Shown: positions 16,997 through 48,732, counted from the first letter of the stretch. The stretch is 64,000 bases of DNA from Candidatus Aenigmatarchaeota archaeon (GCA_016187335.1 JACPJW010000001.1:416001-480000); one strand, 5' to 3'. Notes: generated by a model not told the origin, from the sequence alone. A program made the numbers and translations.

Positions 16997-17109
16997 GGGC
17001 TTGTAGTCTAGAGACCCTTTAGAAAAAGCGTCTACGAAAAGGGTTGGAAAATGGTTATGACGTCGCCTTCACACGGCGAAGGTCGGCGGTTCGAATCCGC
17101 CCGAGCCCA
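16997..17109 (+). tRNA. tRNA-Val(CAC) with one D-loop intron (16/17: 17013-17050)
   Basis: GGGCTTG/CGAGCCC + A73; TCGCC-TT CAC AC-GGCGA; GGCGG-TTCGAAT-CCGCC; BHB central helix TCTA/TGGA, outer helix ACCCTTT/AAAGGGT. Confidence 0.93.
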
Positions 17110-17111
17110 TA

Positions 17112-17134
17112 GCAACTTTCTGGAAAAAAGTTGC
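17112..17134 (+). repeat. Family-B palindrome just 3' of tRNA-Val
   Basis: GCAACTTT-CTGGAAA-AAAGTTGC; no ATCAAAA tail on this copy. Confidence 0.75.
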
Positions 17135-17162
17135 ATTTAAGCATTACGATATTAGTGGAAAT

Positions 17163-18152
17163 ATGAAATCAACAGCGGCAGCCAACGCGAATATTGCGCT
17201 GGTGAAATACTGGGGCAAAAGGGACAGCAGGCTCATTCTGCCACAGAACAGCAGCATATCCATGACCTGCGACGGTCTCACGACAAAGACAACTGTAGAA
17301 TTTTCCGAAAAATACGGCAAAGATACTGTGCTGATAAACGACGAGGAGCTTGTGAAGGACGAGCGTGACATATTAGGCCACATAGAGCGTATCCGAAGCA
17401 TGGCTGGAATAAAGGAAAAGGCAAAGGTGATTTCTGAATCTAATTTCCCTGTAGCTGCAGGGCTTGCCAGCAGCGCTAGTGGCTTTGCTGCCCTGACGCT
17501 TGCAGCAGCAACAGCTGCAGGTTTGAAGTTAAGTGAAAAAGAATTGACAATACTTTCAAGGCAGGGATCCGGTTCTTCATGCCGCTCAATTCCTGAAGGC
17601 TTTGTGGAATGGCACAAAGGAATCGCCGCGGACGGCAGCGACAGCTATGCGGAAAGCATTGCCGGCAAAAATCACTGGCATGATTTCAGTATGATAGCCT
17701 GCATTGTGTCAGAAGCGAAAAAGAAGGTCAGCAGCCGCGCAGGCATGGCGCAGACCGTTGCAACATCGCCTTATTATGACGGATGGCTGAGAACGGTTGA
17801 TGAAGACCTGAGAAAAATCAGGGAAGGAATATTGAACAAAGACTTTTCTTTGGTCGGCATTACAGCAGAGCAGAACTGCCTGAAGATGCATGCGCTGATG
17901 ATGACAACGAGGCCTTCCATAATCTACTGGATTCCTGCAACGCTTGAAATTATCCATCACGTTCAGGCGTGGAGAGAAGAAGGAATAGAGTGCTATTTCA
18001 CGATAGACGGCGGACCGCAGGTGAAGGTCATGTGCCTAGAAAAAGACGAAAAAGAATTAAACAAGAGATTGCTGGATCTGGAAGGCGTCAAAAAAACCGT
18101 GTTATGCAAGCCCGGTGATGGCGCCCAGCTTATAGGAGAACATTTGTTCTGA
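17163..18152 (+). CDS. mvaD: Diphosphomevalonate decarboxylase
   Basis: ANIALVKYWGKRD, LPQNSSISMT, AGLASSASGFAA, SRQGSGSSCRS, FTIDGGPQVK. Confidence 0.96.
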   Translation: MKSTAAANANIALVKYWGKRDSRLILPQNSSISMTCDGLTTKTTVEFSEKYGKDTVLINDEELVKDERDILGHIERIRSMAGIKEKAKVISESNFPVAAGLASSASGFAALTLAAATAAGLKLSEKELTILSRQGSGSSCRSIPEGFVEWHKGIAADGSDSYAESIAGKNHWHDFSMIACIVSEAKKKVSSRAGMAQTVATSPYYDGWLRTVDEDLRKIREGILNKDFSLVGITAEQNCLKMHALMMTTRPSIIYWIPATLEIIHHVQAWREEGIECYFTIDGGPQVKVMCLEKDEKELNKRLLDLEGVKKTVLCKPGDGAQLIGEHLF

Positions 18153-18157
18153 TTGGT

Positions 18158-18901
18158 ATGAAAGTAATCGCACTTGATTTTGACGGCGTCATTGTAGACA
18201 GCATCGGCGAGCACTATTACCTTGCTGTTTCAGCCTTTGAAGAGATGAGAAGGAACGCACAAAAATTCAGAAACCTCAGGAAGAACTTCGATTTTTTCCG
18301 CAGATTCGCAAAGGTAGCCGAGGATTTTTACGCATTTTTCGTCATGATGGAACGCGGCAAGATTCCAAAGGACGAAAAAAAGCTTGTCGCAATGCGCGAT
18401 GAAATACTGAAAAAGGAAAAGAAAAACGCCGAAAGTTTTGCGAAAATTTATTTTGACATAAGAAAAAGAACGAAAGGCAGCGAAAATTGGGCAAGGTTTT
18501 TCAAGCCAAATAAGAAGTTCGTGAGCATGGCAAGGAAGCTTTCTTTGGAACATCCCATATTCATAGCGACAACAAGAGACGGAGAAACCGCTTACAGCAT
18601 TCTCCAAAGACTCGGCGTTGAAATATCCATGGGAAATATTTTATCAAAGGATGACACTACAAACAAAGGAGAGCAGATGAGAATAATAGCCCAAAGAAGC
18701 GGCGCCAGTCTTGGCGACATAATCTTCATTGAGGATAACTTCGAGAATCTCGTGGAATCTTCCAAGACAGGCATAAAGCCCGTCCTTGTTGAATGGGGTT
18801 ACAACACGCCTAGCCAGAGAAAAGAAGCCAGGAAACTCGGCATACCTGTCCTTAAGAAAAAAGGATTTGAGAAGCAGCTTATGGAAATAATTGGGAATTG
18901 A
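18158..18901 (+). CDS. HAD-superfamily hydrolase inside the mevalonate cluster
   Basis: Motif I ALDFDGVIVD, motif II IATTRD, motif IV FIEDNFENL. Confidence 0.85.
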   Translation: MKVIALDFDGVIVDSIGEHYYLAVSAFEEMRRNAQKFRNLRKNFDFFRRFAKVAEDFYAFFVMMERGKIPKDEKKLVAMRDEILKKEKKNAESFAKIYFDIRKRTKGSENWARFFKPNKKFVSMARKLSLEHPIFIATTRDGETAYSILQRLGVEISMGNILSKDDTTNKGEQMRIIAQRSGASLGDIIFIEDNFENLVESSKTGIKPVLVEWGYNTPSQRKEARKLGIPVLKKKGFEKQLMEIIGN

Positions 18902-18905
18902 TAGA

Positions 18906-19934
18906 ATGATTACCGTCTCCGCACCGGGAAAGGTTCACCTGATAGGCGAGCACGCTGTCGTATACGGCGAGCCTGCAATAATAGCTGCTATAGGTAAGAG
19001 AACTTTTGTAACACTGGAAAAATCCCCTTCATTTGTTTACAAAGACGGCAGGTTTGACGAAGCCACGGAATTTTCCTTGGAAGAAGCCTTTGAGAAAGCC
19101 GGTGAGGCGAAAAAATTGTGGCAGGAATGTTTTGAAAAAAAGGACTTCTCGCAGCTTTTTGCTTTTGTAAAGAAGGATTACTACGGCAATTACAGAAAAG
19201 CCGCCGTCGGCTTGCTTGCGAAGAAATTCGGAATTGACCATGGACTGAAAATTCATATTCACTCAGAAATCCCGGCAGGCTCCGGCCTGGGTTCTTCTGC
19301 CTCTCTTGCGGTTGCTTTAACAAAAGGGCTTGCAGAATTTGCCGGAAAGAGACTATCCTTGGAAGAAATATACAACACTGCCTTTGAGCTTGAGCATTTT
19401 ATTCACGGCACTCCGTCAGGCGGCGACCATTCACCGCCATGTTATGGAGGCTTGATATGGTTCCAGAGAAGCCAGCCGAGAAACATAATAAAATCGCTGA
19501 AGCAGGAAATCCCATACCAGCTGGAAAACTTTGTTCTTGTTTACACAAAGGAGCCGGAAAAAAACACGGGCGAACTGGTGCAGGCAGTAAGAAACCTGCC
19601 TGAAGATTACAGAAACCCAAGAATTAAAGAAATAGGCTTGATGACGGAAGAAATGAAAGGCGCACTGATCAGGAAAGATTTCTTTAAAGTGAAGGAACTG
19701 ATGAATAAAACGCAAAGGATTCTGGCAGAGCTTGGCGTTTCCGTTCCGGAGATAGACGAGATTCACGAGGCTGTCAAAGCGATAGGCGGCGCGGCAAAGC
19801 TTTCGGGCGCAGGCGGAGGCGGCGTTATGATCTGCTATCACGAAGACAATGAAAAACTCAACGAAACAATCCGCTCCCTGGGCTACGAGCCTTTGGAAAC
19901 GGACTTGGGTGTGGAAGGAGTTAGGGTAGAATGA
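18906..19934 (+). CDS. mvk: Mevalonate kinase (GHMP)
   Basis: SAPGKVHLIGEHAVVYG, IPAGSGLGSSAS, HGTPSGGD, AKLSGAGGGG. Confidence 0.95.
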   Translation: MITVSAPGKVHLIGEHAVVYGEPAIIAAIGKRTFVTLEKSPSFVYKDGRFDEATEFSLEEAFEKAGEAKKLWQECFEKKDFSQLFAFVKKDYYGNYRKAAVGLLAKKFGIDHGLKIHIHSEIPAGSGLGSSASLAVALTKGLAEFAGKRLSLEEIYNTAFELEHFIHGTPSGGDHSPPCYGGLIWFQRSQPRNIIKSLKQEIPYQLENFVLVYTKEPEKNTGELVQAVRNLPEDYRNPRIKEIGLMTEEMKGALIRKDFFKVKELMNKTQRILAELGVSVPEIDEIHEAVKAIGGAAKLSGAGGGGVMICYHEDNEKLNETIRSLGYEPLETDLGVEGVRVE

Positions 19935-21034
19935 TTCATTATTCCGCTCCCGGCAAGCAGTTCATATCGGGCGAATGGTCTATCCTTGAAATGGGCAACG
20001 TAGGCGTCGTTGCGGCCGTGAACAAACGAGTGCACGCTGTTGTTCAGGCTGCTGAAAAAATTACAATAAGCATAGATGATTTTGCTATCAGCGGTCTGGA
20101 AGCGGATTGGAACGGGAAGGAGATTGTTATTTCAGGCGGCCATGAAAAAGAAAAGCTGCAGTTCATCAAGGAATCCATGGAGACAACGCTGCGTTTCCTG
20201 CAGGACAAAGGCATCAAAACAAAGCCGTTCAAAATCCGCAGCTGGGGCGAGCTTTCGCAAATAATTGTGAATGGCGAAGCCAAGAAAATCGGCTTCGGCT
20301 CGTCTGCTTCGGTTACAGTGGCTGTAACCGCGGTGCTTCTGGATTATCACGGGTATGAAGCAAGCAAGGAAGAAATATACAAATTAGCGACAATAGCTCA
20401 TTACTTCGCGCAAGGAAAGGTCGGCTCTGCCTTTGATGTTGCCGCATCCACATATGGCGGCGTCTTTGCTTATTCCCGTTTTGATCCTGGCTGGCTGACA
20501 AGCAAAATAGAAAGAGTAGAAAGAATTGCAGACATAGTGAAGGAAAAGTGGCCCGGGTTCTTCGTGGAGCAGCTCGAAGTCCCTGCGGATTTTTACTTGC
20601 TTATTGCTTGGACAGGAGAATCCTTTTCCACGTCCGCAGCCATAAAAAAGATGAACGAGTTCAAGGCGGCAGATTCCGGGCAGTACCAGGAACTTATTGG
20701 AAGGGTTGCAAATACGGCCCGAAGCGTTGCTGATTACTGGAAAAGAAAAGAACGGTCTTCGGTGCTGGAATTGCTGCGGAAGAACGAGGATTATTTGCGC
20801 GAGCTTGGGGAAAAATCCGGGGTTCCTATAGAAACGCCTGCGCTGAAGCTATTGGCAGATATTGCAAACAAGTGCGGCGCTGCCGGGAAGCTCTCTGGCA
20901 GCGGCGGCGGAGACTGCGGCATCGGCGTATGCTTTGATGACAGGACGGCTGGAAAAGTTAAGGAAGAATGGGAAAAAGCAGGTTTGTACTTTGTTGATGC
21001 CACAATAGACTATGAAGGCGTCAAGAAGCATTAG
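19931..21034 (+). CDS. mvaK2: Phosphomevalonate kinase (GHMP, MvaK2/ERG8-type)
   Basis: SAPGKQFISGEWSIL, KIGFGSSAS, GSAFDVAASTYGG, KLSGSGGGDCGI. Confidence 0.92.
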   Translation: MIHYSAPGKQFISGEWSILEMGNVGVVAAVNKRVHAVVQAAEKITISIDDFAISGLEADWNGKEIVISGGHEKEKLQFIKESMETTLRFLQDKGIKTKPFKIRSWGELSQIIVNGEAKKIGFGSSASVTVAVTAVLLDYHGYEASKEEIYKLATIAHYFAQGKVGSAFDVAASTYGGVFAYSRFDPGWLTSKIERVERIADIVKEKWPGFFVEQLEVPADFYLLIAWTGESFSTSAAIKKMNEFKAADSGQYQELIGRVANTARSVADYWKRKERSSVLELLRKNEDYLRELGEKSGVPIETPALKLLADIANKCGAAGKLSGSGGGDCGIGVCFDDRTAGKVKEEWEKAGLYFVDATIDYEGVKKH

Positions 21035-21219
21035 GCCTTTCTTTTGGCTACCCGGGCGATGTAGCCGGCGACCTTGTTCCTTACTATCTTGCTTTCAAAT
21101 AATTTCAGTTCCTCAAGGATTTTCTTGTTTGCTTCAAAATCCCTGGAAAATCTGTCAGGGAATTTTTCCAGCAGGTCGTTGCTTACGCCTTTGATGTCAG
21201 ATGTCATTATATTGCCCAT
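21031..21219 (-). CDS. rps17e: 30S ribosomal protein S17e
   Basis: FSRDFEANKKIL...SKIVRNKVAGYIAR signature. Confidence 0.95.
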   Translation of the reverse strand: MGNIMTSDIKGVSNDLLEKFPDRFSRDFEANKKILEELKLFESKIVRNKVAGYIARVAKRKA

Positions 21220-21296
21220 TTTTTCACCGTGAACCTTCCATTTGGATTGCTTCTTTTCCCGAAGGTTTTAATAGTATATAAAAAACTTAAATATCC

Positions 21297-22271
21297 ATGA
21301 AAGCCTTTGTCGTAAAATCGCCAATAGGCGTCTTCGCCTTCAGCGAAAGCGGCGAACTGGTTTACTACAGGGTATTCAGCAGCGATCCGCCAAAGGCGCT
21401 GCAGGAGTTTGAAAGCGTTATCGACAAAGACTTCATAGACGACCTGAAGGACTATGAATTAGCAGAAGACAAGGGCGCGCAAATGATTCTCAGAAAGCAC
21501 TTCCGGGAATATGCATTGTCTCTGGGCTTTGCAAAAAGCAGCGAGGAACTGAATAAATTTCTTTCTTCTTTTGCTGCGCTGCTCTCGCGCAAGAGGATGA
21601 AGCAGCAGATGAGTCGCGACAGGCTCATTATACAGGCATCCAACGCTTTGGAGGACATAAAGAAGACAGAAAACCTGCTTTCAGAGCGGTTCAGGGAATG
21701 GTACACCCTTCATTATCCCGAGCTGAAGAGCGTTAAAGCAGAAGATGTCATCAAATACGGCCCGCGCGAAGCGTTCCCCGATTTTAGGGAAAGCGTCGGC
21801 GTTGATCTGGCGGAAAACGATTTAGAAATAATCCTGGAGCAGGCAAAGACCCTGAAATCCGTGCAAGAGCACAGGAAAAGCCTGGAAAGGTATATCCGGA
21901 ATGCCGCAAGGGAAGTGATGCCGAATTTTTCATCTCTTATTGAACCCTTTTTGGCAGCGCGCTTTCTTTCACTGGCCGGCTCTCTGGAAAAGCTGGCCAA
22001 GATGCCTGCCTCGACGCTGCAGCTGCTTGGCGCAGAGAAGGCCTTGTTCAGGCATCTCCGTGAGAAAGGAAAGTCGCCGAAATACGGCATCCTGTTTTTG
22101 GACACCCGCATCCATACTGCGCCTGACGAGCAAAGGGGCAAAATAGCCCGCGCCATATCGTCAAAACTTATGCAGGCCGCGCGCATAGATTTTTACTCAG
22201 GCAGGGAAGAGCCGCGCCTGAAAGCAGAGCTTGGTCAAGAAATAAAGAAAATCAATGAGGAAAGGAAATGA
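21297..22271 (+). CDS. nop5: C/D box sRNP protein Nop5 (Nop56/58)
   Basis: REWYTLHYPEL, LAKMPASTLQLLGAEKALFRHL, SPKYGILF, RGKIARAIS. Confidence 0.95.
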   Translation: MKAFVVKSPIGVFAFSESGELVYYRVFSSDPPKALQEFESVIDKDFIDDLKDYELAEDKGAQMILRKHFREYALSLGFAKSSEELNKFLSSFAALLSRKRMKQQMSRDRLIIQASNALEDIKKTENLLSERFREWYTLHYPELKSVKAEDVIKYGPREAFPDFRESVGVDLAENDLEIILEQAKTLKSVQEHRKSLERYIRNAAREVMPNFSSLIEPFLAARFLSLAGSLEKLAKMPASTLQLLGAEKALFRHLREKGKSPKYGILFLDTRIHTAPDEQRGKIARAISSKLMQAARIDFYSGREEPRLKAELGQEIKKINEERK

Positions 22272-22918
22272 AAGAGATTTTTCCCGGCGTGTTCAGGTCA
22301 GGCAAAGACTTGCTTACTGTTAATTTAGTTCCCGGAAAGAGGGTCTACGGCGAAAAGCTGCTTGCCAAAGGCAGGCAGGAATTCAGGGAATGGGTCCCCC
22401 AGAGGAGCAAGCTTGCCGCAGCGATAATGAACGGGCTACAGAACATGCCGATGAAGCAGGGCAGCAGGATACTCTATCTAGGCGCAGCATCAGGGACAAC
22501 GCCGTCGCACGTGAGCGATATTGTTGGCCATGACGGAATTGTCTATGCCCTGGAATTCTCTGAACGCCCGTTCAGGTCACTGATAGAGCTGGCGCGAACC
22601 CGCAAGAACATTGCCCCGCTGCTTGCTGACGCGCGGAAGACAGAGGATTATTACTGGGTCGAGGCGTGCGACATTCTATATTGCGACATCGCGGACCCCC
22701 AGCAGACTGAGATTGCTATCCGCAATTTTGAAGAATTCATTGCCGAAGGTTTTCTTTTACTTTCAATAAAATCACAGAGCATCGACGTTGTCAAGGAGCC
22801 GCTGCGCGTTTACGAAGAGGAAAAAAGGAAATTAGAGAAAGCGGGATTTGACGTTCTTGAACTGATCGACCTAGAGCCATACGAGGAAAAGCACTGCTTC
22901 ATCGTAGCGAAGAAATAA
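22268..22918 (+). CDS. flpA: Fibrillarin-like rRNA/tRNA 2'-O-methyltransferase
   Basis: REWVPQRSKLAAAI, ILYLGAASGTTPSHVSDIV, YALEFS. Confidence 0.96.
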   Translation: MKEIFPGVFRSGKDLLTVNLVPGKRVYGEKLLAKGRQEFREWVPQRSKLAAAIMNGLQNMPMKQGSRILYLGAASGTTPSHVSDIVGHDGIVYALEFSERPFRSLIELARTRKNIAPLLADARKTEDYYWVEACDILYCDIADPQQTEIAIRNFEEFIAEGFLLLSIKSQSIDVVKEPLRVYEEEKRKLEKAGFDVLELIDLEPYEEKHCFIVAKK

Positions 22919-23971
22919 TCACTTGCACAGCTTCGCCAGGTGCTCCTTGAACTTTTCCCAGTCGCTGGTATTCAGAGTCGCGCCGGCTGCGGCTTCGTGC
23001 CCGCCTGCCGATGCTTTCAGCCCACGAGCGGCTTTCTGCAGCAGCTTTGCCACATCCATGCCGCTGTGCGTTCTTGCGGACATCTTCGCTTTCGCGCCGC
23101 TTTTCTCGTAAACGACAATTATTTTGTTCTTGTGCTTTTCCGCCAGCTTTGTTGAAATTATGGAAGAAATATTGTATCTTGATTTTATGCCGTACAAGAC
23201 AAGTCTGCCTAAAATCTCCGAGTTAACTTCGGCATCGGCGAACGTCATGTCAATTTCCGACTGCAGTTCCCTGTAGGCTTCCGTCATCTTTTCCGCGTCT
23301 TTGCTTTCCAAGAATTCTTTGTAGTCTTCGTGCCTTGCCAGAACGTTCACGATTTCCTCGCACGTCATTTTTTTCGTTGCTCTTGACGACTCGATCATGA
23401 AAGAAATCATTGAAAAATCCCCCATCGCATCATGGCCGTATCTATTTTTCACTTCGTCAACAAGCTCCTTTGAGTGGGAAAGGTCGTAATCCGCAACCAT
23501 GCCTATTGCGGCGACCCATAAATACTGCGAAATATCGTGGACCCTTGAGCAAATCTTGTAAGCTAAATAAGAAGTGGACTGGTAGATCTTTGGATTCCTG
23601 AATCGCGGGTTGTAATGCACGACGTTGCCGCTGTTTAAATTTTTGAAGACCTGGTGGTGGTCGATAATCAGGATGTCGCAGATGCCCTTCAGCTTTTTTA
23701 CAACATCCTCTTTCTGGTCTATGGCCATGTCAAGAAATATCATCTTGTTGGGCAGAGAAGTCTGAACCCTTTTTATCAAATTTTTCTCGGGCGGCATAGG
23801 CTGCGCTATGATGAAAGGCTTCTTCACGCCGTTCTTTTCCAGGGTTTTCATGACGAGCAAACAGGAAGCAATGCCGTCGCTGTCGTTGTTGAATATGATG
23901 ACTACGCCGTCTTTTGCCGTTGTGTTCTTCAGGAACTCTACGGTCTTGTCTGTTTCAGTCATGACAATCAA
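22919..23971 (-). CDS. DHH-family phosphoesterase with DHHA1 domain
   Basis: NDSDGIAS, IFLDMA, IIDHHQ, GMVADY, C-terminal AGGHEAAAG. Confidence 0.9.
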   Translation of the reverse strand: MIVMTETDKTVEFLKNTTAKDGVVIIFNNDSDGIASCLLVMKTLEKNGVKKPFIIAQPMPPEKNLIKRVQTSLPNKMIFLDMAIDQKEDVVKKLKGICDILIIDHHQVFKNLNSGNVVHYNPRFRNPKIYQSTSYLAYKICSRVHDISQYLWVAAIGMVADYDLSHSKELVDEVKNRYGHDAMGDFSMISFMIESSRATKKMTCEEIVNVLARHEDYKEFLESKDAEKMTEAYRELQSEIDMTFADAEVNSEILGRLVLYGIKSRYNISSIISTKLAEKHKNKIIVVYEKSGAKAKMSARTHSGMDVAKLLQKAARGLKASAGGHEAAAGATLNTSDWEKFKEHLAKLCK

Positions 23972-24072
23972 CAGAATAATTGAAGGAAAGGCTTAAATGA
24001 AGTTCAGAATGTTGAGGCAGAAGTCCCGGGCAAAGCTCTGTTGGAGGCAGAAAACCAATCTCCCTTTTGTTC

Positions 24073-29364: not shown

Positions 29365-29499
29365 GGCCGCCATGGTGTAGAAAGCCCTTTTTGACGCTTC
29401 GCTTATCAAAAAGCGCTTGCGGAAATAATTAGGGTTTGCAAATTGGTAGCATCGGAGCCTGTGGAGCTCCTTGGCTGGGTTCGAATCCCAGTGGCGGCC
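29365..29499 (+). tRNA. tRNA-His(GUG) with genome-encoded G-1 and a D-loop intron (16/17: 29382-29442)
   Basis: G-GCCGCCA/TGGCGGC-C73; GGAGC-CT GTG GA-GCTCC; CTGGG-TTCGAAT-CCCAG; BHB TGTA/TGCA, outer helix AGCCCT/AGGGTT. Confidence 0.93.
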
Positions 29500-37131: not shown

Positions 37132-37169
37132 ATAATAAGAGAAAGAAATCAAGGAAAACAAAGGAGAGG

Positions 37170-37490: not shown

Positions 37491-37563
37491 TTTTTTCGCA
37501 GTCTTCACGTGATTAATTAAAGTTTTCAATTTCCTTTAAGAAAATTGTTTCCAAAGGAAATTC

Positions 37564-39332: not shown

Positions 39333-39397
39333 GGTTTTCTCTTGGCGAAAACGTGATTTAAAGATTTTAGTTGAGTTTTAGTGTAGCATTAGTTCAT

Positions 39398-39661
39398 GCG
39401 CCCGTAGCTCAGCTTGGCAAACTTTGCTACTCCAAAGTTTGATCAAAAGAGGTCTGTGACGAAGTTTGAGCAAATAGAGCACTTCTCTCCTAGAGGTGAA
39501 TTGAGCGCAACGGAAGACTGAAGTTTCTGAAGAAACTTCAGCCGGTTTTGTGCGATGATAATTTCCTGAAGTGAGGAAGGGGCCGCGCGTTCGAATGCAC
39601 CCTTTCTTGGAAAGAAAGCGTGCACGGAAAGAAAAGGGTGCCGAATATCGCGCCGGGCGCG
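39398..39661 (+). tRNA. tRNA-Arg(CCU) with three introns (19/20: 39418-39473; 37/38: 39493-39573; 59/60: 39596-39647)
   Basis: GCGCCCG/CGGGCGC + G73; spliced D-loop AGCTTGGATA; CTTCT-CT CCT AA-GGAAG; GCGCG-TTCGAAT-CGCGC. BHB central helices GCTT/GAGC, CTCC/GAAG (one mismatch), TTCG/CGAA. Confidence 0.92.
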
Positions 39662-39664
39662 CTT

Positions 39665-39967
39665 ATGTTCCATTACAGAGATCCGATAAGGGAAATAGCG
39701 GAAGAAGACGGATATTTCCTCACCGAGACAGCCGAAGGTATGAATCTTGCCTTGAAGACAATCTTAGGCTTTGCAAGCATAATACTCAGGGAACTGGAAG
39801 GGGGGAAATGTTATGTAAAAATAGTACTTGAGCCTCCTAGAGGTTTATCAAGGACAGCCGAAGAAATTTTTGAAAGTCCTTATTCCGCGGCCGGATATGT
39901 TGCAAAATGGATGTGCGGACCTATCTATACGGATCTGGTTCAAGAAGTTGAGGCGTTAATTCTCTAA
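39665..39967 (+). CDS. Hypothetical protein, 100 aa (start re-placed after the tRNA)
   Basis: ATG at 39665, 4 nt after tRNA-Arg; the ORF-track extension overlaps the tRNA intron. Confidence 0.5.
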   Translation: MFHYRDPIREIAEEDGYFLTETAEGMNLALKTILGFASIILRELEGGKCYVKIVLEPPRGLSRTAEEIFESPYSAAGYVAKWMCGPIYTDLVQEVEALIL

Positions 39968-40001
39968 TCTTTATATTCCGCCTTCGCACAAAAGATTCAT
40001 T

Positions 40002-41339: not shown

Positions 41340-41360
41340 CGTTTTTAATAGTGATGCTGA

Positions 41361-42572
41361 ATGGATTATCGCCTTTCAATACTTTTAGCTGCGGCATGCC
41401 TGCTTCTGCTGTCCTTCGTTTCCAGAGGAGAAACAACCGGCAATGTAAGCATCTCAACGCAGGGAAATATTTCCCCGTCAACAGGGGTTTACGGATATGT
41501 AGCTCCCGGCGGATGCAACAGCAACGCGGAGTGCTACGACTATAAATGCTTCCAGGATTTTTTGGTGCCATCCGGAAACAAGACCGGCAGGTGCGACGTC
41601 CCGGCAACCACAAAATGCTTTCACAGCGGGACAGGCTATTCAACCGGCACTTATTATTGCTCGGCTAACACATCGTATTACCGGTGCGATACAGGCGGCA
41701 ACGGAAGCTGGACAGGCGCGTTTTCGTGCTCGTCAGGCCAGACGTGTTCTGTTGATAGTACGTCGTCTTCAGCCCCTTGCTCAACATCGTCGCCTTCAAG
41801 CAGCTCAAGCAGCAGCGGAGGCGGAGGCACAGCAATAAAGAAAGCCTCTGTCCAGCTTGTCTCGGGCATAGCCGGCTTTGAAATTTATCAGGAGGAAGAT
41901 GTCAACAAAACGGTTATCGTGAAAAACAACGGCGATTATGTCCTTGGCAATGTCTACCTTGACATACAGGGAATTCCTTTTGCTTCCGTCCTTACGGGCA
42001 GCAGCGAGATCAATTTGTCAAAAAATTACAACTTCACCGTGTCTTTCATGCCCAAAAACTCTACTGAAATCAGGACGTACCCCGCCAATGCAACGGTTTA
42101 TACCAACTTCACCAATACGACGGCAAACTTTTCCTTCACAGTCAAAGTACTCCCAAGCAACAGGACCGTTTCAGAGTCAATCATTCCCGCGTACGCAGAA
42201 TATATCAACCTTTCTCTGGAATACGAAAAGAACGTAACGGCCCTGGAAAAGGAAGGGCATAACCTCACGGATGCGAGGGCGATTCTTACGACAATAAAGG
42301 CAAAGATGCAGGACATCAACCAGTCGATATCCAAGAAGGACTACTTTTCTGCTGCATCCCAGATCAGCGAGGTGAAGGTTCTTTTTGATGAGCTCCAGAA
42401 AACCATTTCAAAATCCGAAAAGCCGAAAGGAACGGATATAATAATTTATCTGGCCGTCGCCGCTGCCATTCTGGTGGCAGTTATTCTGGCCTACCTTCTG
42501 TGGCCGTCAAAGCAGCAAAGAAGAGTTTTTCAGGGCCAGCAGTATTCGCAAGCAGCAGTAATTAAGCAATAG
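41361..42572 (+). CDS. Membrane-anchored surface protein: Cys-rich domain, Ser/Gly linker, Ig/CARDB-like domain, coiled coil, C-terminal TM
   Basis: Signal peptide; multiple Cys; SSSSSSSGGGG linker; VIVKNNG; terminal IIIYLAVAAAILVAVILAYLLW. Confidence 0.75.
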   Translation: MDYRLSILLAAACLLLLSFVSRGETTGNVSISTQGNISPSTGVYGYVAPGGCNSNAECYDYKCFQDFLVPSGNKTGRCDVPATTKCFHSGTGYSTGTYYCSANTSYYRCDTGGNGSWTGAFSCSSGQTCSVDSTSSSAPCSTSSPSSSSSSSGGGGTAIKKASVQLVSGIAGFEIYQEEDVNKTVIVKNNGDYVLGNVYLDIQGIPFASVLTGSSEINLSKNYNFTVSFMPKNSTEIRTYPANATVYTNFTNTTANFSFTVKVLPSNRTVSESIIPAYAEYINLSLEYEKNVTALEKEGHNLTDARAILTTIKAKMQDINQSISKKDYFSAASQISEVKVLFDELQKTISKSEKPKGTDIIIYLAVAAAILVAVILAYLLWPSKQQRRVFQGQQYSQAAVIKQ

Positions 42573-42927
42573 AGATCCGGCCGGCGTCAGCGGCTGGTGG
42601 TTTCTTTCCCTGAACCGACCTTTCTGCGGCAAACTTGCAGAGGATGACAAATCTGCTGTTCAGTTCGCCGCGGTCAAGCTTGTTTTCAAAAATCACGGAA
42701 GCCAGTTTTCTCGCCTCTGAAATTATTTCGTCGTTGGAAAAAACCCTGTCGTTTTTCCCCCTTATCCTGCGCAGGTATTGCGATATTGCCGGCTGCGATA
42801 TTCCCATCAGCCTTGCGGCCTCGCTCTGGTTAAGATTGTAGCCCTCAATAAGCTCTCTGGCTATCAATGATCTCAGAGACGGAACTATTTCGCTGGCAAT
42901 CAGTTCCCATTCAATTTTCATTTTCAA
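42562..42927 (-). CDS. Archaeal HTH transcriptional regulator (COG2522-like)
   Basis: IVPSLRSLIARELIEGYNLNQSEAARLMGISQPAISQYL. Confidence 0.85.
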   Translation of the reverse strand: MKMKIEWELIASEIVPSLRSLIARELIEGYNLNQSEAARLMGISQPAISQYLRRIRGKNDRVFSNDEIISEARKLASVIFENKLDRGELNSRFVILCKFAAERSVQGKKPPAADAGRISIA

Positions 42928-42999
42928 TCACCGATGCAAGGAGAAGCAAAGCTTCTATGATAAGAGATTGAAACAAACGTTTTTAAGCCTGATAAGTTT

Positions 43000-43107
43000 C
43001 TAGAATTTTATTATACCGAGGGCTATGAGGCCTGTCACCAGAACGATGGCCGTTATGAGTATCCAGAAATAAGTGTAAACGTAATCATGCGTCGACTTTT
43101 CTTTCAT
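43000..43107 (-). CDS. Possible 35-aa single-TM microprotein
   Basis: MKEKSTHDYVYTYFWILITAIVLVTGLIALGIIKF; manual translation. Confidence 0.4.
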   Translation of the reverse strand: MKEKSTHDYVYTYFWILITAIVLVTGLIALGIIKF

Positions 43108-43162
43108 AATCAGAACCCATCATGTTAATTAATTTTATTTAGTCGGTTCCGGTACCTCCGAC

Positions 43163-43687
43163 TTATTTCTTCATCATCAGGGGCTCCCCTTTTTCAGGGT
43201 AATGCACGTCAATCAGCTCGTAATCCTGCAGTACGCGGGCCCACTGCTCTACAAGGCCTTCATGGACGCCGAATTTCTTCGCGGCGTCTTTCAGTTTCAC
43301 CTTTTTGTTTTTCATCACCAGGTCAAACAGCTCGTCCAGAGGCGCCTTGTAATCCTTCTTCAAATCAGCAATAACCTTTTCATTGCTCACGATGCCTTCC
43401 TTGGCGACTCTTTCAAAGAACTTTGCATTATCAATGATTATCTGCTTTGCAGGCTTGACAATGCTTTCTTTTACCGGCTCTGAAATGCTTGGCAGCTTTC
43501 TCAGAATATCCTTGTATCTTTCAAGAAGAAAATCCCTGTCGCTTTTCAGCTCGATGTTTTCTTTTTTCAGCTTGATTATAGTATCCTTCATGATGGAGAA
43601 GGATTCCTCCATGCGCTGCATCCTCCTGTTCATTTCCCTTTCAAGTCTGGCAATTTTTTTTTCGGCGTCGTCAGCGAATAGAGGCAT
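43163..43687 (-). CDS. Hypothetical coiled-coil protein with C-terminal winged-HTH-like region
   Basis: Heptad repeats, then LDELFDLVMKNKKVKLKDAAKKFGV...WARVLQD. Confidence 0.65.
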   Translation of the reverse strand: MPLFADDAEKKIARLEREMNRRMQRMEESFSIMKDTIIKLKKENIELKSDRDFLLERYKDILRKLPSISEPVKESIVKPAKQIIIDNAKFFERVAKEGIVSNEKVIADLKKDYKAPLDELFDLVMKNKKVKLKDAAKKFGVHEGLVEQWARVLQDYELIDVHYPEKGEPLMMKK

Positions 43688-43747
43688 AAGAAAAAATTCT
43701 TTTGATATTTTTTAAAGCTTATAACGAACGGGAGCGAACACATATGC

Positions 43748-44548
43748 ATGTACGTTGTCAAGGCCGACGGCCGGCGCGAGACTTTCAGCAAAGAGAAAAT
43801 AATAAATACATGCCTCAAGGCCGGAACCGACAGGAAGAAGGCTGAGGAAATATCAGGAAAAGTTTTTTCGTCCGTCAAAGACGGGATTGCCACGAAGGAA
43901 ATATACAGAATGATTCTGAATCTTCTTGAAAAAGCGAGCCATAGGTCATCTTTCTTTTTCCGCCTCAGGGACGCAATAGCAAAGCTCGATTCTGAAAGCT
44001 ATGAACTCTATGTAAAAGAGCTTTTGGAATCCATGGGCTACAAATGCTCGTGGAATAAAATCATTGCCGGAAAATCCGTGGAGCATCAGGTTGATATTGT
44101 TGCAAAAAACGCGAAAGGCAGAATGTTTCTTGTTGAATGCAAAAGGCACGTGAACCCCCACAGGTTCTGCGGCCTGGGCGTCATTTTGCAGGTCCAGGCG
44201 CGCCTTGAGGACATAGATGACGGCTTCGAATCAGGGAAAAATAATTGCAGGTTTGACCAGGCGTGGATATTCAACAACACGAAATTCTCGGAGCACGCAA
44301 AGCAGTACGCTGCGGCAAAAAATATCCTCCTGAGCGGATGGGGGTACAAAGGAAGCATTTCTATAGAAAAGCTTGCTGGCAGGAACAGGATATATCCCGT
44401 GACGCTGCTGAAAGCAGACAATTCAACAATACAGCAGCTGCTCCGTCAGAAAATAATCACGGTGGAGGATGTCCTGAAAGAAAAGATAAGCATGCCGAAG
44501 AGCGTTGCCGATGAGCTCAGGAAGCAGGCACGTATCATTCTTTCTTAA
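43748..44548 (+). CDS. ATP-cone domain fused to Mrr-like PD-(D/E)xK restriction endonuclease domain
   Basis: MYVVKADGRRETFSKEKI (ATP cone); SYELYVKELL, QVDIVAK, FLVECK, NTKFS. Confidence 0.85.
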   Translation: MYVVKADGRRETFSKEKIINTCLKAGTDRKKAEEISGKVFSSVKDGIATKEIYRMILNLLEKASHRSSFFFRLRDAIAKLDSESYELYVKELLESMGYKCSWNKIIAGKSVEHQVDIVAKNAKGRMFLVECKRHVNPHRFCGLGVILQVQARLEDIDDGFESGKNNCRFDQAWIFNNTKFSEHAKQYAAAKNILLSGWGYKGSISIEKLAGRNRIYPVTLLKADNSTIQQLLRQKIITVEDVLKEKISMPKSVADELRKQARIILS

Positions 44549-44573
44549 AAATTATCTGTGCAGTTATTAGCAG

Positions 44574-44678
44574 GCCGGCGTCGCATAATCTGGTGGTGCA
44601 CTGATTGCATGCGAAGCAAGTGTATGTCTCGAAAACCAGCGGGCTCTGCCCATGCAGGTTCAAATCCTGCCGCCGGCG
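44574..44678 (+). tRNA. tRNA-Ser(CGA) with one anticodon-stem intron (29/30: 44604-44625)
   Basis: GCCGGCG/CGCCGGC + G73; CTG|GT-CT CGA AA-ACCAG; long variable arm GGGC-TCT-GCCC; BHB GCAC/GTGT, outer helix TTGC/GCAA. Confidence 0.92.
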
Positions 44679-44682
44679 CTTT

Positions 44683-45150
44683 ATGATAGAAATAAAACTA
44701 GCTGCTGAAAAGGATAGGCAAGGCTTTGAAAATCTGGCTGCAGAAAGAGACAAAGAAATAAGGCAGCGCAGGGCAAAAAATTACTGGGGCAAAAAATTCA
44801 CGAAGCTTGTCATGGAAAAGAGGCTGGTAATTAGCCTTGACAAAGGCAAGCCATCAGGATTTCTTTATTTTACATTCGAATTTATCGACTATCCTGCGGC
44901 GTACGTTGAGCTTATTTTTGTTTCAAAGAAGAGCCGGAGAAAGGGTTCAGCCTTGTATTTGTTGAATAGATTCGAGCGGCTCGCGTCAGAAAACGGTTTT
45001 GTCAATGTATTTTCCAGCACAAATCCAAGCAACAGGATCTCGCTGAAATTGCACAAGAAGCTCGGCTACAAAGAATGCGGCTTTATCTACGGCATAGAAA
45101 ACAGGCGCAGCAAGGAGATTTTTCTCTCAAAAGAACTGAAAAAAACCTAA
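44683..45150 (+). CDS. GNAT-family N-acetyltransferase (start re-placed at ATG 44683)
   Basis: YVELIFVSKKSRRKGSA acetyl-CoA loop; STNPSNRISLKLHKKLGY. Confidence 0.85.
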   Translation: MIEIKLAAEKDRQGFENLAAERDKEIRQRRAKNYWGKKFTKLVMEKRLVISLDKGKPSGFLYFTFEFIDYPAAYVELIFVSKKSRRKGSALYLLNRFERLASENGFVNVFSSTNPSNRISLKLHKKLGYKECGFIYGIENRRSKEIFLSKELKKT

Positions 45151-45191
45151 ACTTCCTTTTTAAGTTTTGAAACAAGTTCTTAGTATTTCAT

Positions 45192-45451
45192 GCCGGGATA
45201 CCGAAATCAGGTCTCTCAAGATAAGAGTGAAGAAATTCACGATGATTGCCTTTCATTGGTAAACGGGCCAGTGCAGTTCCGCTTCAAAGAAGCGGTGCGG
45301 CCAACCTTGAGAGCTGGTGCGCCTTCGGCGCGTGGGGGTTCAAAGCACCCTTTCTTTTTGCAAAAGAAAGCGTGCGCGGAAAGAAAAGCAACTTTTCAGA
45401 AAAGTTGCATCAAAAATAAAGGAAAGGGCTGTGAAATTCCCTCTCCCGGCG
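45192..45451 (+). tRNA. tRNA-Ser(UGA) with three introns (17/17a: 45209-45256; 30/31: 45272-45304; 59/60: 45345-45437)
   Basis: GCCGGGA/TCCCGGC + G73; spliced D-loop AATCTGGTAA; CCAG|C-CT TGA GA-GCTGG; long variable arm. BHB central helices GAAA/TTTC, GGCC/GGCC, TTCA/TGAA. Confidence 0.92.
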
Positions 45452-46054
45452 CTTTTTTCTTGAAGATGCAAGAAGCTTTTAAAATAACCATTTCTAATTA
45501 TAAACATGGCAAGCGATTTTTACCGCCAGCTGGGGTCAGGCGTTGCCAGCCTGACGTTCGGCGTTGCGCTTTCCGTATTCATTTACGCTGCCGCTTCTGG
45601 TGCGGCAAGCAGCCTGCAGTCATGGCTGCTCTTTGCGGCATCGTTCCTGCTGATGCTCAGGTTCTGGTGGCGGTACAGCGAACTTTTCGTGCAGTTCCTG
45701 CCGTCCCGCACGTTTTCGCATTTCCTGTTTGACTTTGCGATTTCATTCTTCGGCATTCTGGCAGTGCTTTTTGTAAGCGCTATGCAGACATGGGCAGCCT
45801 TGGGGGCACTGGCTATGCTTTCAAGCGCGATACGATGCAGGCTTTCGTGGAACGAAGCATCCAAGGATGTAAAGGCAAAGCTGAAAAGAACTTTTGCAGG
45901 AGCATTGGCGATGCTTTTTGTCTTCGCTGCGATATACGCCCTTGCACCGGTCTTTGATCAGATTTTGCTTGCTGCATTAGTATTTCTCATAGTTCTGCTG
46001 TTCGTTGTTTACGCCTCAAGAAAGCCGTGATTTTGAAATCTCCCGGCGCTTTTT
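45442..46054. mobile_element. Possible one-gene islet bounded by a 16-bp direct repeat of the tRNA-Ser(UGA) 3' end
   Basis: TCTCCCGGCGCTTTTT at 45442-45457 and 46039-46054; no integrase in the interval. Confidence 0.45.
45506..46030 (+). CDS. Hypothetical integral membrane protein (about 6 TM)
   Basis: Successive hydrophobic helices; no recognised family. Confidence 0.75.
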   Translation: MASDFYRQLGSGVASLTFGVALSVFIYAAASGAASSLQSWLLFAASFLLMLRFWWRYSELFVQFLPSRTFSHFLFDFAISFFGILAVLFVSAMQTWAALGALAMLSSAIRCRLSWNEASKDVKAKLKRTFAGALAMLFVFAAIYALAPVFDQILLAALVFLIVLLFVVYASRKP

Positions 46055-46135
46055 ATATTCTGAAGAATATATGTCAGCCAAGACAAAAGTATTTAAATCT
46101 TTAATCACTAATAAGTAGTATCAAAATTATGAGGT

Positions 46136-46399
46136 GTGGATATGGTAGAACATTTCATTGGAAAGATATCAACTCAAGTTCTTACGGATTTAAATAGAGG
46201 CAGGGATACGTGGGAAGTTCCATATGAAGCCGTGATTTATGTAAAGGAAGGTCCAGAAGCATGTGGACAGGTTCTTGGAATAGTTCCGGGACTTAGCCCT
46301 GATATGAGAATGCGTACAATGAGCGTTTATGCAGGCAGAAAATTCGTGTCAAAGCCTTCAGAACACGGCTACAAAGATATTTTCGAAATCGTGGAATAG
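46136..46399 (+). CDS. Hypothetical protein, 87 aa
   Basis: AT-richer ORF preceded by GAGGTG SD. Confidence 0.5.
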   Translation: MDMVEHFIGKISTQVLTDLNRGRDTWEVPYEAVIYVKEGPEACGQVLGIVPGLSPDMRMRTMSVYAGRKFVSKPSEHGYKDIFEIVE

Positions 46400-46600
46400 A
46401 AATTTTCTAACGTAAAACAAAAACGTTGATTATTTTACAATTCTCTTTTTTATTTCACTATTTATCTTTCTTTTATTTCAAATTATAAAATTCTTTGATT
46501 AATTCTTCAAAATCCCGTGCTTCTCTCGTGCTTTCTGCGTAATTTGCGCCTTGGAAAATCTTTATTAATGGGTTTTTACAAGAACTATAAAGGTGAAGAA

Positions 46601-47236
46601 ATGGTATCCCAGATAGTAGATGTATTATCTCAGTTTACCGTTGGTACAGTGTCTTTCCTGCCAAGCCTGGTTGCTGCCGTCATTCTTCTGGTCATCGGCT
46701 TGGTTGTTGGAAAAATAGTGGGAAGGGTAGTCAAGGAAGCCTTGGAAAAGCTGAAGGTTGACTACTACGTTTCGGAAACCAAGAAGCCCGTTGTGATGCT
46801 GAGCGATTTGTTCGCCCTCATAGCAAGATGGTGGATATACCTTGCGTTCGTAACGGCGGCTTTGTCCACGAACGTTCTTGGCATACCGTCATTGGCGTTG
46901 TGGGTTTCTGAAATCAATGCATTCATCCCGCGAATCATCGGCGCAGCCGTGATTCTGATTTCGGGCTACATCCTGGCTGAGTACATCAGGGGTCACTTGG
47001 TGTCATTGAAGAAACTCTATGCAGAGGTTGTCGGCAAGATGCTATTCTTCTTCGTCATGTACGTGGCGCTTGCGCTTGCCCTGCCTATTCTAGGGGTTTC
47101 AGCAATCCTGGTGAACAACATCCTGATAGTAATCATAGCCTCGATAGGGCTTGCAATGGCAATAGCCCTGGGCCTGGGATTGAAGGACGCTGTTTCTGAC
47201 GTTTCCAAGAGATATGTCAAAAAGCTGAAAGTTTGA
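46601..47236 (+). CDS. TM-helix-repeat membrane protein (CmpX / MscS TM1-like); start re-placed at ATG 46601
   Basis: Repeated FLPSLVAAVILLVIG and FIPRIIGAAVILISG units; C-terminal IALGLGLKD. Confidence 0.8.
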   Translation: MVSQIVDVLSQFTVGTVSFLPSLVAAVILLVIGLVVGKIVGRVVKEALEKLKVDYYVSETKKPVVMLSDLFALIARWWIYLAFVTAALSTNVLGIPSLALWVSEINAFIPRIIGAAVILISGYILAEYIRGHLVSLKKLYAEVVGKMLFFFVMYVALALALPILGVSAILVNNILIVIIASIGLAMAIALGLGLKDAVSDVSKRYVKKLKV

Positions 47237-47266
47237 TTTTTTTGCTTTCATTTCAATTTTTCATTT

Positions 47267-47611
47267 CTAATGACTAGGCCGCCAAGCAATGGGATTGAGG
47301 CCTGATATTTCCCACCATGAAAAATCCTTGCCGGTTAAAATTTCCCTCGGGTCGTGTATTCCCGCTTTTCCGGAATGAACCGGCAGTTCTACCCCTTCCA
47401 GTTCCTGCTCACTTACAACACAGTAGTGTTCGTCGGATCTGGCGTGGCTGAATACAAGCCTGATTGAAGCAATCCCCGGAGCGATATACCCTTTATCCCA
47501 TAATTGCTGGTACGGCTCAAGCCCTCTGAAAGCAAAGGGAAGGTTCGTCTCCCTGCGGTTTTTCAGATAATTTTCAATAGTTCCGTCCCTTTCAGGTTTA
47601 TAAAATGGCAT
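47267..47611 (-). CDS. Hypothetical protein
   Basis: 114-aa ORF, divergent from tRNA-Gly. Confidence 0.5.
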   Translation of the reverse strand: MPFYKPERDGTIENYLKNRRETNLPFAFRGLEPYQQLWDKGYIAPGIASIRLVFSHARSDEHYCVVSEQELEGVELPVHSGKAGIHDPREILTGKDFSWWEISGLNPIAWRPSH

Positions 47612-47653
47612 ACCCTTAGTTCTTAAGAATTAAGCATAAATAGAAATCTTGAC

Positions 47654-47834
47654 GCGATGGTAGTCTAGGAACCCTTTTTCTCGTTGCGCTCGAAAAAGCG
47701 TTCACGGAAAATGGGTTGGAAGATGGTAGGATACAACCTTGCCAACGGCCCTTTTCAAAAAGCGCCGGCGGAAAATGCAAACAGGTTGAGAGGCGAAAGC
47801 CCGACAAACCCGGGTTCAAATCCCGGCCGTCGCA
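47654..47834 (+). tRNA. tRNA-Gly(GCC) with three introns (16/17: 47670-47722; 37/38: 47745-47782; 45/46: 47791-47807)
   Basis: GCGATGG/CCGTCGC + A73; CAACC-TT GCC AA-GGTTG; spliced variable loop AG|AC; CCGGG-TTCAAAT-CCCGG. Central helices TCTA/TGGA, TTGC/GCAA, GTTG/CGAC. Confidence 0.92.
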
Positions 47835-47928
47835 TAAACAAGAAAAAAATAGCCGGAAACAAGGGTCCCAGTCAGGCAACGCATCTCAATTATTTATATA
47901 GCCCCCTGACAAATATTGTATTGATATC

Positions 47929-48411
47929 ATGTTCTTCAAAAAGAAAGACAATTACGAGGAAATAAAGCGCGCCGTTGAAGAGCCTGTTTCTTCCGAGCCG
48001 ACATTGCAGGACCTGGAAATAGAGGACCTGCCGCCGGAAATGCGCTACGACAAGAATTATGCGGAGCCCCGGGACAGCGCGCCTCTTTTCGTCAAGGTGG
48101 AGAAGTACAAGGAACTGATAGGCCTCATACAGGAAATGCGGGCATTTACAAACGGATTGAAGCAGACGTTTTCTGTGATACACGAGTCTGATGCGCTGCG
48201 CAACGATGCCGTTAAAATCATGCGCACGACGGTCCAGCGGCTGGACAAGACCTTGGCAGAAATTGACAGCGAGCTGGTAAGGCCGCGCGGCATTGACATG
48301 GAAAAGCCGCCTTACGCCGGCAGCGAAATGAAATACATTGAAGGATCGCTGTCAGAATTGCAGCGCCATTTGGCTGTTTTGCGCAAGGATCTGCAGGAAA
48401 TGAAGGAATGA
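47929..48411 (+). CDS. Hypothetical coiled-coil protein
   Basis: APLFVKVEKYKE motif followed by heptads; family not confidently named. Confidence 0.7.
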   Translation: MFFKKKDNYEEIKRAVEEPVSSEPTLQDLEIEDLPPEMRYDKNYAEPRDSAPLFVKVEKYKELIGLIQEMRAFTNGLKQTFSVIHESDALRNDAVKIMRTTVQRLDKTLAEIDSELVRPRGIDMEKPPYAGSEMKYIEGSLSELQRHLAVLRKDLQEMKE

Positions 48412-48460
48412 TCAGGTTATCTGGTTCTTAAATATTTCATCAAAAATTACTACATTCAGT

Positions 48461-48732
48461 GCGGCCGTCGCCAAGAGGCCCTTTTTAGAAAAAAGCGTCT
48501 ACGGAAAAACTAAAAAGCGTCTGGAAATCTGGTCAAAGGCGCGGGTTTCACTTGAGTGTTGATGCGCAAGCAGGTGAAAGCGTAACTCAAGGCAGCTGAC
48601 GAGGCTGACGCACTTCGTGCGTCATGCTGTTTGATATCCCGTCGGTTAGTCCGTTCGGCGGTTCGAATGCACCCTTTCTTAGAAAGAAAGCGTGCACGGA
48701 AAGAAATGGTGCCGAAAATCCGCCCGGCCGCA
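48461..48732 (+). tRNA. tRNA-Leu(CAA) with four introns (15/16: 48476-48527; 30/31: 48546-48584; 37/38: 48592-48635; 59/60: 48668-48718)
   Basis: GCGGCCG/CGGCCGC + A73; spliced D arm GCCAAG|TCTGGTCAAAGGC; CGGG|A-CT CAA G|A-TCCCG; variable arm CGG-TTAGT-CCG; GGCGG-TTCGAA|T-CCGCC. The first three BHBs are relaxed (mismatched central helix); the third junction could shift by 1 nt. Confidence 0.87.

Follow-up and report, generated by a model that had tools for sequence, protein, structure and literature searches.

A structured repeat dispersed through a Candidatus Aenigmatarchaeota genome, probably recruited repeatedly as introns of tRNA and other stable RNA genes

In the 64,000-nt stretch 416001-480000 of contig JACPJW010000001.1 from Candidatus Aenigmatarchaeota archaeon (GCA_016187335.1; hereafter the window), eight introns of six transfer RNA (tRNA) genes are built on one short sequence module, here called family A, which the same genome also carries in other stable RNA genes and as free copies at gene ends. 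These copies are probably best explained by a dispersed structured repeat that has repeatedly been recruited as introns processed by the splicing endonuclease EndA and then copied between equivalent sites of different tRNAs. The host genome (1.01 Mb in two contigs, 47% G+C, 91% complete) comes from an organism whose DNA is present in groundwater metagenomes. Positions are those of the window unless prefixed with C2 or a locus name, which refer to genome sequences.

All eight copies listed in a preliminary description of the window are present, each on the + strand, in tRNA sense orientation, and each with the core CCCTTT-hairpin-AAAGCG-N4-CG(G)AAA. Three interrupt the T-loop at 59/60. The intron of tRNA-Arg(CCU) at 39596..39647, in a gene of about 264 nt with three introns (39398-39661), forms a perfect bulge-helix-bulge (BHB) structure of the hBHBh' type, with TTCG/CGAA as central helix H, 9 bp (GCACCCTTT/AAAGGGTGC) as inner helix h' and the 5-bp T-stem as h. 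The tRNA-Leu intron at 48668..48718 is likewise a textbook hBHBh' motif, both introns combining the T-stem, the 4-bp helix TTCG/CGAA, two 3-nt bulges and an inner helix of 5-9 bp. The third, in tRNA-Ser(UGA) at 45345..45437, was assigned from sequence and is composite, running from the family-A module through a further repeat (family B, an AACTTTT..AAAAGTT hairpin plus ATCAAAA) to a closing segment. D-loop introns were found in tRNA-Val (17013..17051, core 17015-17040, gene at about 16997-17109), with a strict BHB at 17013|17014...17049|17050 and a boundary uncertain by about 3 nt, and in tRNA-His(GUG) (29381..29442, core 29385-29425), where a strict BHB was sought without success and the boundaries, deduced from D-loop logic, are uncertain by a few bases. 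Those of tRNA-Gly(GCC) (47669..47723) and tRNA-Leu (48476..48529) lie at 15/16, the latter placed from sequence and fold and bearing two tandem 3' halves, AAAAAGCGTCTACGGAAA and AAAAAGCGTCTGGAAATC; it was the intron-less syntenic orthologues that moved the Gly intron from 16/17, where it had first been placed, and that fix the Leu position as well. The same tRNA-Gly(GCC) has an intron at 37/38 (47745..47782) with a relaxed splice motif: TTGC/GCAA forms H, h' is supplied by the module's own helix, and the bases CGGAAAAU between the two remain unpaired.

Within the window, AAAGCG-N4-CGRAAA with at most one mismatch is found 13 times, compared with a mean of 1.7 in shuffled sequence, and 0 of 100 shuffles reach 13. 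The T-loop introns of Arg and Leu are identical at 48 of 52 positions (three substitutions and one indel; local-alignment z=28 versus shuffles) despite differing T-stems, and the D-loop introns are related to one another as well (Val/Gly z=12, Val/Leu z=10). Chance as the source of the shared intron sequence is excluded. By motif count and by z-scores of up to 28, the eight introns thus form one true family, as had been proposed together with the roughly four Arg/Leu differences and the shared Val/Leu D-loop sequence; a similarity no better than that of shuffled AT-rich hairpins did not materialise.

The module consists of a 5' arm xyz-CCC-UUU(n), a variable hairpin top and a 3' arm (A)nAAA-GCG-x'y'z', followed by N-CGGAAA. 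The three bases preceding CCC are complementary to N1-N3 of the N4 box, and the arms form a single helix carrying an invariant C.C mismatch, the middle C standing opposite C. Among 186 distinct archaeal copies, with 19 triplet types at the helix base, all three flank pairs are formed in 171 (shuffles: mean 31, maximum 45), N1 pairs with N4 as well in 158, and the A-run after CGG matches the T-run after CCC in length in 122. Helix base and hairpin top covary around 18 core letters that are invariant across archaeal phyla, which implies a conserved factor that would read these letters. The helices are almost purely Watson-Crick, with G.U not clearly above A.C, and in many copies the hairpin arms are of mixed sequence, not homopurine/homopyrimidine. 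These values are anchored counts, used in place of RNAalifold on a MAFFT alignment, which returned no structure with the 5' arm one column off in half of the rows. No covariance model of Rfam 15 matches the module at gathering or E-value thresholds. At the free copy at C2:78268, TAGAA before CCC is kept in the empty site, so that the bases before CCC look like host sequence there; the Gly and Leu introns contradict this reading, since in these the corresponding bases belong to the insert. K-turn, box C/D, tetraloop receptor and minihelix/CCA mimic as well as small ribozymes (hammerhead, twister, pistol) were dropped as unlikely identities of the module, their defining letters appearing to be absent.

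The strict motif of two bulges and a 4-bp helix is realised in the Arg and Leu T-loop introns, the Val D-loop intron and a 16S ribosomal RNA (rRNA) copy at GCCAGCC|A. In-silico removal of an intron lets ARAGORN detect a tRNA-Ser at C2:161xxx, and at the Val locus the program needs the intron segment taken out before it calls a tRNA-like gene, whose isotype and anticodon it gets wrong. Moreover, the spliced Gly and Leu D-loop sequences exactly match the intron-less orthologues of sister genera. The genome encodes a single EndA of 202 aa with N-terminal and catalytic domains (PF02778, PF01974) and also RtcB (528 bits), for which a search had been suggested. Judged from sequence, the eight segments are true archaeal BHB introns, and splicing of the family-A introns is accordingly a prediction of their structure. 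It had further been stated that the 3' four bases of each intron are adapted to pair with the host exon; the pairing is there, albeit not by the very last four bases, as two bulge bases come after.

Comparison with relatives points to frequent turnover at the intron sites. In five genera of one family, no two versions of the syntenic tRNA-Gly gene have the same set of introns: the D-loop intron is absent from the orthologues of genomes G019, G007, G014 and G015, which read GTCTAG(T)TGGTAGG, and the 37/38 intron from those of G019, G014 and G015, the latter intron being also carried by a roughly 90%-identical relative (X7). For tRNA-Leu, the D-loop has no intron in G007 and G014 and one only at 20/21 in G015 and G019, and the T-loop is the uninterrupted GGTTCGAATCC in G019, G007 and G015; both Leu introns (15/16 and T-loop) occur in this genome only, among the compared genera. 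Presence and absence, which the preliminary description had proposed to compare, therefore do not follow uniform inheritance, the Gly and Leu insertions being missing from syntenic genes. All three intron positions of tRNA-Arg are common to G015, with sequences diverged there and a degenerate relative of the family-A intron at the T-loop site. An old Arg site, a new Leu site and 92% identity between the two introns point to copying from Arg to Leu, a direction that we infer. In X7, positions 29381-29437 of tRNA-His are replaced by a 23-nt hairpin without the motif, and a contig joins 45344 to 45438, restoring the Ser(UGA) T-loop TTCAAAT, a weak case given that one flank has only 23 nt. The joint 39597-39641 was left out for its 23-nt flank, and joints 48632-48686, 48513-39589 and 45415-48479 were ignored as repeat-induced mis-joins. 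Free copies turn over, too: in a genome of the same genus two of three sites (C2:78268 and C2:69845) are empty, whereas the copy at C2:520299 is retained with a different hairpin top. Two more inserts are missing from X7, one of 33 nt in the tRNA-Ser(UGA) anticodon stem (45272-45304) and a hairpin of 17 nt in the tRNA-Gly variable region (47792-47808); both read as further small introns with presence/absence variation.

The genome-wide census counted about 58 strict matches to the 3' motif and 35 exact matches to the full pattern. About 45 copies could be classified by context, and all are sense-oriented, none being antisense to the gene containing or preceding it. Around 24 of these lie inside tRNA genes, three in 16S and one in 23S rRNA. 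Both rRNA genes, encoded on the - strand, are heavily interrupted (16S, C2:239678-242953, spanning 3.3 kb; 23S, C2:208273-212555, spanning 4.3 kb). One rRNA family-A intron interrupts the universal site GCCAGC|CGCCGCGGTAA, where CCAG/CTGG makes a clean 4-bp helix, and another is found at GGATTAGATA|CCC. The signal recognition particle (SRP) RNA gene, outside the window (C2:74695-75085, locus L214:246-636, + strand), has, following ...GCCUGUA, an insert of 142 nt in a region for which the Rfam model provides 23 positions, and this insert opens with a full family-A module (TAGAGA-CCCTTTTCTTTTGGAAAGAAAAGCGTCTACGGAAA). A probable RNase P RNA (C2:205798-206071, L217, - strand) matches its model only weakly (48 bits, below the gathering score) and contains a family-A-like segment plus a 48-nt insert, with the pairing rule broken (cca versus CGGC). 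Eleven free copies start 0-4 nt past the stop codon of co-oriented open reading frames of at least 77 codons, TAG being the stop in 7 of these 11 genes versus 20% genome-wide (P=0.002), and a few sit behind tRNA 3' ends. Free copies have neither closing segment nor splice motif; several bear two tandem 3' halves, some face a convergent gene, and an AT-rich ATATTA box often trails the module. Hence, the intron copies proposed earlier stand, whereas their proposed specificity as an intron family does not, given the free copies behind stops and tRNAs and the insertions in rRNA, SRP RNA and probably RNase P RNA genes. CGGAAA plus ATATTA was also considered as a promoter (transcription factor B recognition element and TATA box) and rejected as not general, some free copies facing convergent genes; at C2:78268, a better TATA box lies further downstream.

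Among 41 close relatives, 25 have the exact pattern. Of 371 genomes from the phylum Candidatus Aenigmatarchaeota, 142 contain it, copy numbers ranging from 0 to 41 per genome, compared with 3 matches in total for a reversed control pattern in the same 371 genomes. Whole families of the phylum are without it (0/21, 0/23 and 0/19 genomes). In a wider scan using one genome per prokaryotic species, the pairing rule is obeyed, among the matches listed, by 56 of 60 copies in archaeal-titled records versus 2 of 28 in bacterial ones, and the bacterial-record matches are chance hits. The archaea among the matches listed are ANME-1/Methanophagales, Bathyarchaeia, Nitrosotalea, Woesearchaeota, Nanoarchaeota, Micrarchaeia, Altarchaeum, Iainarchaeum, Hadesarchaea, Methanocellales and Thermococcaceae. 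A common neighbouring gene was sought around the copies in archaea outside DPANN and not found, the neighbours being ordinary housekeeping genes. Since the module is phylum-wide and orthologous sites are empty, the module itself is old, extending through the phylum and beyond, and the single insertions are young. The earlier suggestion of a recently mobile intron consequently holds for single insertions, as seen from the empty syntenic Gly and Leu sites, and fails for the family, which has kept its core across the phylum and beyond and as such is ancient. Outside Aenigmatarchaeota, tRNA genes harbour the module as well, in the anticodon loop, D-loop and T-loop (L162 of Methanocellales, L113 and L163 of Micrarchaeia, L166 of Woesearchaeota), and therefore intron use is not limited to one phylum. 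In a few loci (L106 of Altarchaeum at 4889-5070, L070 of G026, L065 of G032), module plus spacer is tandemly repeated at least three times with periods of 71 and 85 nt; as the spacers are identical, these arrays are not CRISPR.

For the reading that we prefer, a dispersed repeat recruited into introns, the following can be put forward. An intron copy consists of the module plus an extra 3' segment closing the structure, and this closing segment resembles a second, adapted 3' half, AAAGGG-x'y'z' followed by CGAA/TGGA and 2 nt. It pairs perfectly with the 5' arm as helix h' and with four exon bases as helix H, thereby creating two 3-nt bulges at which the 202-aa EndA would cut, with RtcB then joining the exons. 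An intron fitting one site, for example the universal T-loop TTCGAA, could then serve as the template for a copy at the equivalent position in another tRNA. That 59/60 is a common site may be because CG(G)AA is a near-complement of the universal T-loop TTCG. Closing segment and 3' half can be aligned at C2:259547 (AAAGCGTCGACGGAAAA versus AAAGGGTCG--GGAAAT), in tRNA-His (AAAGCGCTTGCGGAAAT versus A-GGGTTTGC--AAAT) and in G015 (AAAGCGCTTGCGGAAA versus AAAGG-CT-GCG-AAAT), and the closing segment may thus have arisen by duplication of the 3' half.

Several points weigh against this proposal. The closing segment resembles the 3' half in large part because it has to pair in the way it does, and a regular-expression test for closures by a second 3' half gave only 12 clean cases, which is too few. 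The introns of Gly at 37/38, of the Gly D-loop and of His have a relaxed BHB motif only, and single-unit (alpha4) EndAs are strict in their substrates according to older work. Alpha4 EndAs with an extra loop have, for DPANN, been linked to disrupted tRNA genes (PMC5829648). The roughly 24 tRNA contexts are assignments made by eye on the basis of D-arm and T-arm flanks and partial Rfam matches. The counts of G.U and A.C do not favour pairing at the RNA level over pairing in single-stranded DNA, the proposal does not account for the invariant CCC/GCG/CGGAAA letters, and searches of the genome for RVT_1 and Y1 found no enzyme able to move the module.

Among the alternatives, the one put forward in the preliminary description is an intron-specific mobile element, whose excised RNA, linear or circular, would be re-ligated into other pre-tRNAs by reversed EndA/RtcB chemistry, copied to DNA and fixed. 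The transcript sense orientation of every classifiable copy, the near-identical introns at the same structural position of different tRNAs, their absence from these new sites in relatives and the presence of genes for RtcB and EndA would all fit such a route. A free copy is, besides, laid out like an excised minimal intron, with a hairpin and a 6-7-nt 3' tail resembling CGAA+2, and its z|CCC junction, lying inside a helix splinted by the module's 3' arm, might be a good ligase substrate. Nevertheless, an RVT_1 search gave no match in the sequenced 91% of the genome, and reverse splicing offers no source for the different exon-pairing tails that copies require at different tRNA positions. As the copies behind stop codons, read from their sequences, have no splice motif, reverse splicing alone is insufficient for the family, and we regard this route as unlikely.

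No better rated is a non-autonomous repeat moving at the DNA level, of the kind of repetitive extragenic palindromes (REP), miniature inverted-repeat transposable elements (MITEs) or other hairpin elements, possibly forming triplexes, from which only tolerated sense copies survive. It would readily account for intergenic free copies, tandem partial duplications, hairpin modules nested in the tops, the patchy copy number within the phylum and the empty sites in the congener, and both the almost purely Watson-Crick helices and the A-run/T-run equality in 122 of the 186 copies, a mirror layout like that of pyrimidine-purine-purine triplex repeats (PMC4666352), could be taken in its favour. However, the only sign of a Y1 (HUH) transposase is a 16.7-bit fragment with a stop codon, below the 23-bit cut-off, and no neighbour gene is common to the copies in other archaea. 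Terminal inverted repeats are absent and target duplications not clear, none being seen between empty and filled site at C2:78268. With 0 of about 45 classified copies antisense, very strong selection would be needed. A triplex cannot be general with so many arms that are not homopurine/homopyrimidine, and in short introns such as the 16S copy and that of Val the A-run does no more than pair with the T-run in Watson-Crick fashion. These objections make a DNA-level origin improbable. A MITE in the narrow sense was rejected: what looks like a CGAA repeat at T-loop sites is complementary to the palindrome TTCGAA, and introns at TTCAAA sites carry TGAA, not CAAA.

A selected RNA signal, such as a 3'-end or terminator hairpin or a protein-binding site, with introns as a by-product and no ongoing mobility, would agree with the 18 invariant core letters and the covarying helix base and top, with the precise placement 0-4 nt after stops and after tRNA 3' ends, with a T-rich 5' arm resembling the oligo-T terminators generally known from archaea and with the ATATTA box that often comes next. 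But whole families of the phylum do without the module, orthologous sites are empty in the congener, no Rfam family matches, a terminator within tRNA or rRNA genes would be harmful, and a promoter role is not general with some free copies facing a convergent gene; we hold this explanation to be somewhat less probable still. At a similarly low level we place a far-reaching variant, a pan-archaeal mobile mini-intron moving at the RNA level, which EndA would excise and RtcB would join to RNA ends or cleaved sites able to pair with its internal triplet, the module's 3' arm splinting the z|CCC junction, with fixation in DNA and the free copies as reservoir. Chance likeness of AT-rich hairpins, or ancient introns simply passed on by descent, for which the short, A/T-rich introns and the Arg intron positions common to G015 might be quoted, is hardly credible at all in view of 0/100 shuffles reaching the motif count, z-scores up to 28, only 3 matches of the reversed control and the Gly and Leu insertions absent from syntenic orthologues.

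The nearest precedent is offered by the transposing tRNA introns of Thermoproteales, with which Fujishima et al. 2010, Mol Biol Evol 27:2233, reportedly dealt (cited in PMC3239211). In that order, similar introns occur at different positions of unrelated tRNA genes. The family-A introns resemble these in being BHB-bounded, in occupying non-canonical sites such as 59/60 and the D-loop and in their inferred recent gain; what characterises transposing introns of the Thermoproteales type is also found here, with 48/52 identity between Arg and Leu and the Leu site empty in G019, G007 and G015. In contrast to Thermoproteales, the module is not confined to introns, since free copies sit downstream of stop codons and of tRNA genes, and it also occupies genes for rRNA, SRP RNA and probably RNase P RNA. 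It combines an invariant core with a helix that covaries and is conserved across the DPANN phylum and other archaeal phyla; the EndA is of the single-unit type here and (alpha-beta)2 in Thermoproteales. With the bacterial REP repeats associated with tyrosine transposases (REP/RAYT) and other IS200/IS605-derived repeats, the module has in common that it is a short imperfect hairpin in many copies, often just downstream of genes, with few conserved letters and variable stems. It differs from them in that no Y1 transposase was found, in its strict co-orientation with transcription without inverted pairs and in having copies within essential RNA genes, where removal is required. A third comparison is with the PIT/BoxC/TMECO intrastrand triplex repeats of bacteria (Holder et al. 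2015, PMC4666352). In some copies, as in these repeats, one arm consists of pyrimidines and the other of purines, with a purine tail as mirror, and in both cases the genomic context varies between close strains. Many arms here are, unlike in PIT repeats, of mixed sequence, and the mirror is often a plain complement too, owing to the symmetry of TTTTCTTTT. PIT repeats, which are bacterial whereas the module is archaeal, show nothing that corresponds to the flank-to-N4 pairing or to the invariant CCC/GCG/CGGAAA letters.

Archaeal BHB introns are known from tRNA, rRNA and Cbf5 pre-mRNA, and a permuted SRP RNA has been described for Thermoproteus (PMC4731332). As in archaeal BHB introns generally, the splice motif, cutting by EndA and joining by RtcB would be the same here, and stable RNAs other than tRNA are processed as well. 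Searches of open-access papers found no report of one module common to tRNA, rRNA and SRP RNA introns and free repeats. New here is one module for nearly all stable-RNA introns plus free copies at gene ends, with a covarying helix, an invariant core and an occurrence in many archaeal phyla. The module bears on the open question of the route by which archaeal RNA genes gain introns, for which a census of Asgard tRNA introns from 2026 found no general arrival route (bioRxiv 10.64898/2026.10.13.758758). One genome and its relatives offer three states, namely free copies, introns predicted to be spliceable and empty orthologous sites, so that gain events become directly comparable. Should an RNA-level mini-intron be true, archaeal intron gain would for the first time have a concrete source population and a route, with free copies seeding the introns of archaeal tRNA, rRNA and SRP RNA.

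Because several introns break each gene, the tRNA genes are nearly invisible to standard finders: ARAGORN reported zero tRNAs in the raw window, and an Rfam search of it gave two partial tRNAs only. An automated excise-and-test procedure using strict BHB motifs on 45 regions regained only two tRNAs, and the low yield, for which most tRNA contexts had to be read by eye, results from many introns being relaxed or nested. A free 3' half (AAAGCGTGCATGGAAA) is located on the - strand at 13796..13811 (C2:429796), intergenic and immediately after a family-B hairpin. Family B (AACTTTT-N3-AAAAGTT hairpin with ATCAAAA tail) itself occurs at 45389-45416, 39425-39457 and 3562-3642 and at many genome sites, nesting within or beside family-A modules in both introns and free copies. 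The variable hairpin top of the module can host other repeats, such as this AACTTTT..AAAAGTT hairpin or a GACGCAC..GTGCGTC hairpin. The latter, GACGCAC-TTCG/AAAG-GTGCGTC with flank ...GCTGTTTCGA, was observed at 48603-48621, C2:821421, C2:132912 and G001:C82 around 7320, recurring in a tRNA-Leu intron, another tRNA intron and the family-A hairpin top of a sister genome. In several copies CGGAAA is followed by TCTGCAAAGAGCAAAGCTCTTTGAGATGCCAG (C2:525070-525110, C2:210400-210440, L086 of G014, L042 of G029 and L061 of G001), which is conserved between genera, one such copy being inside 23S rRNA.

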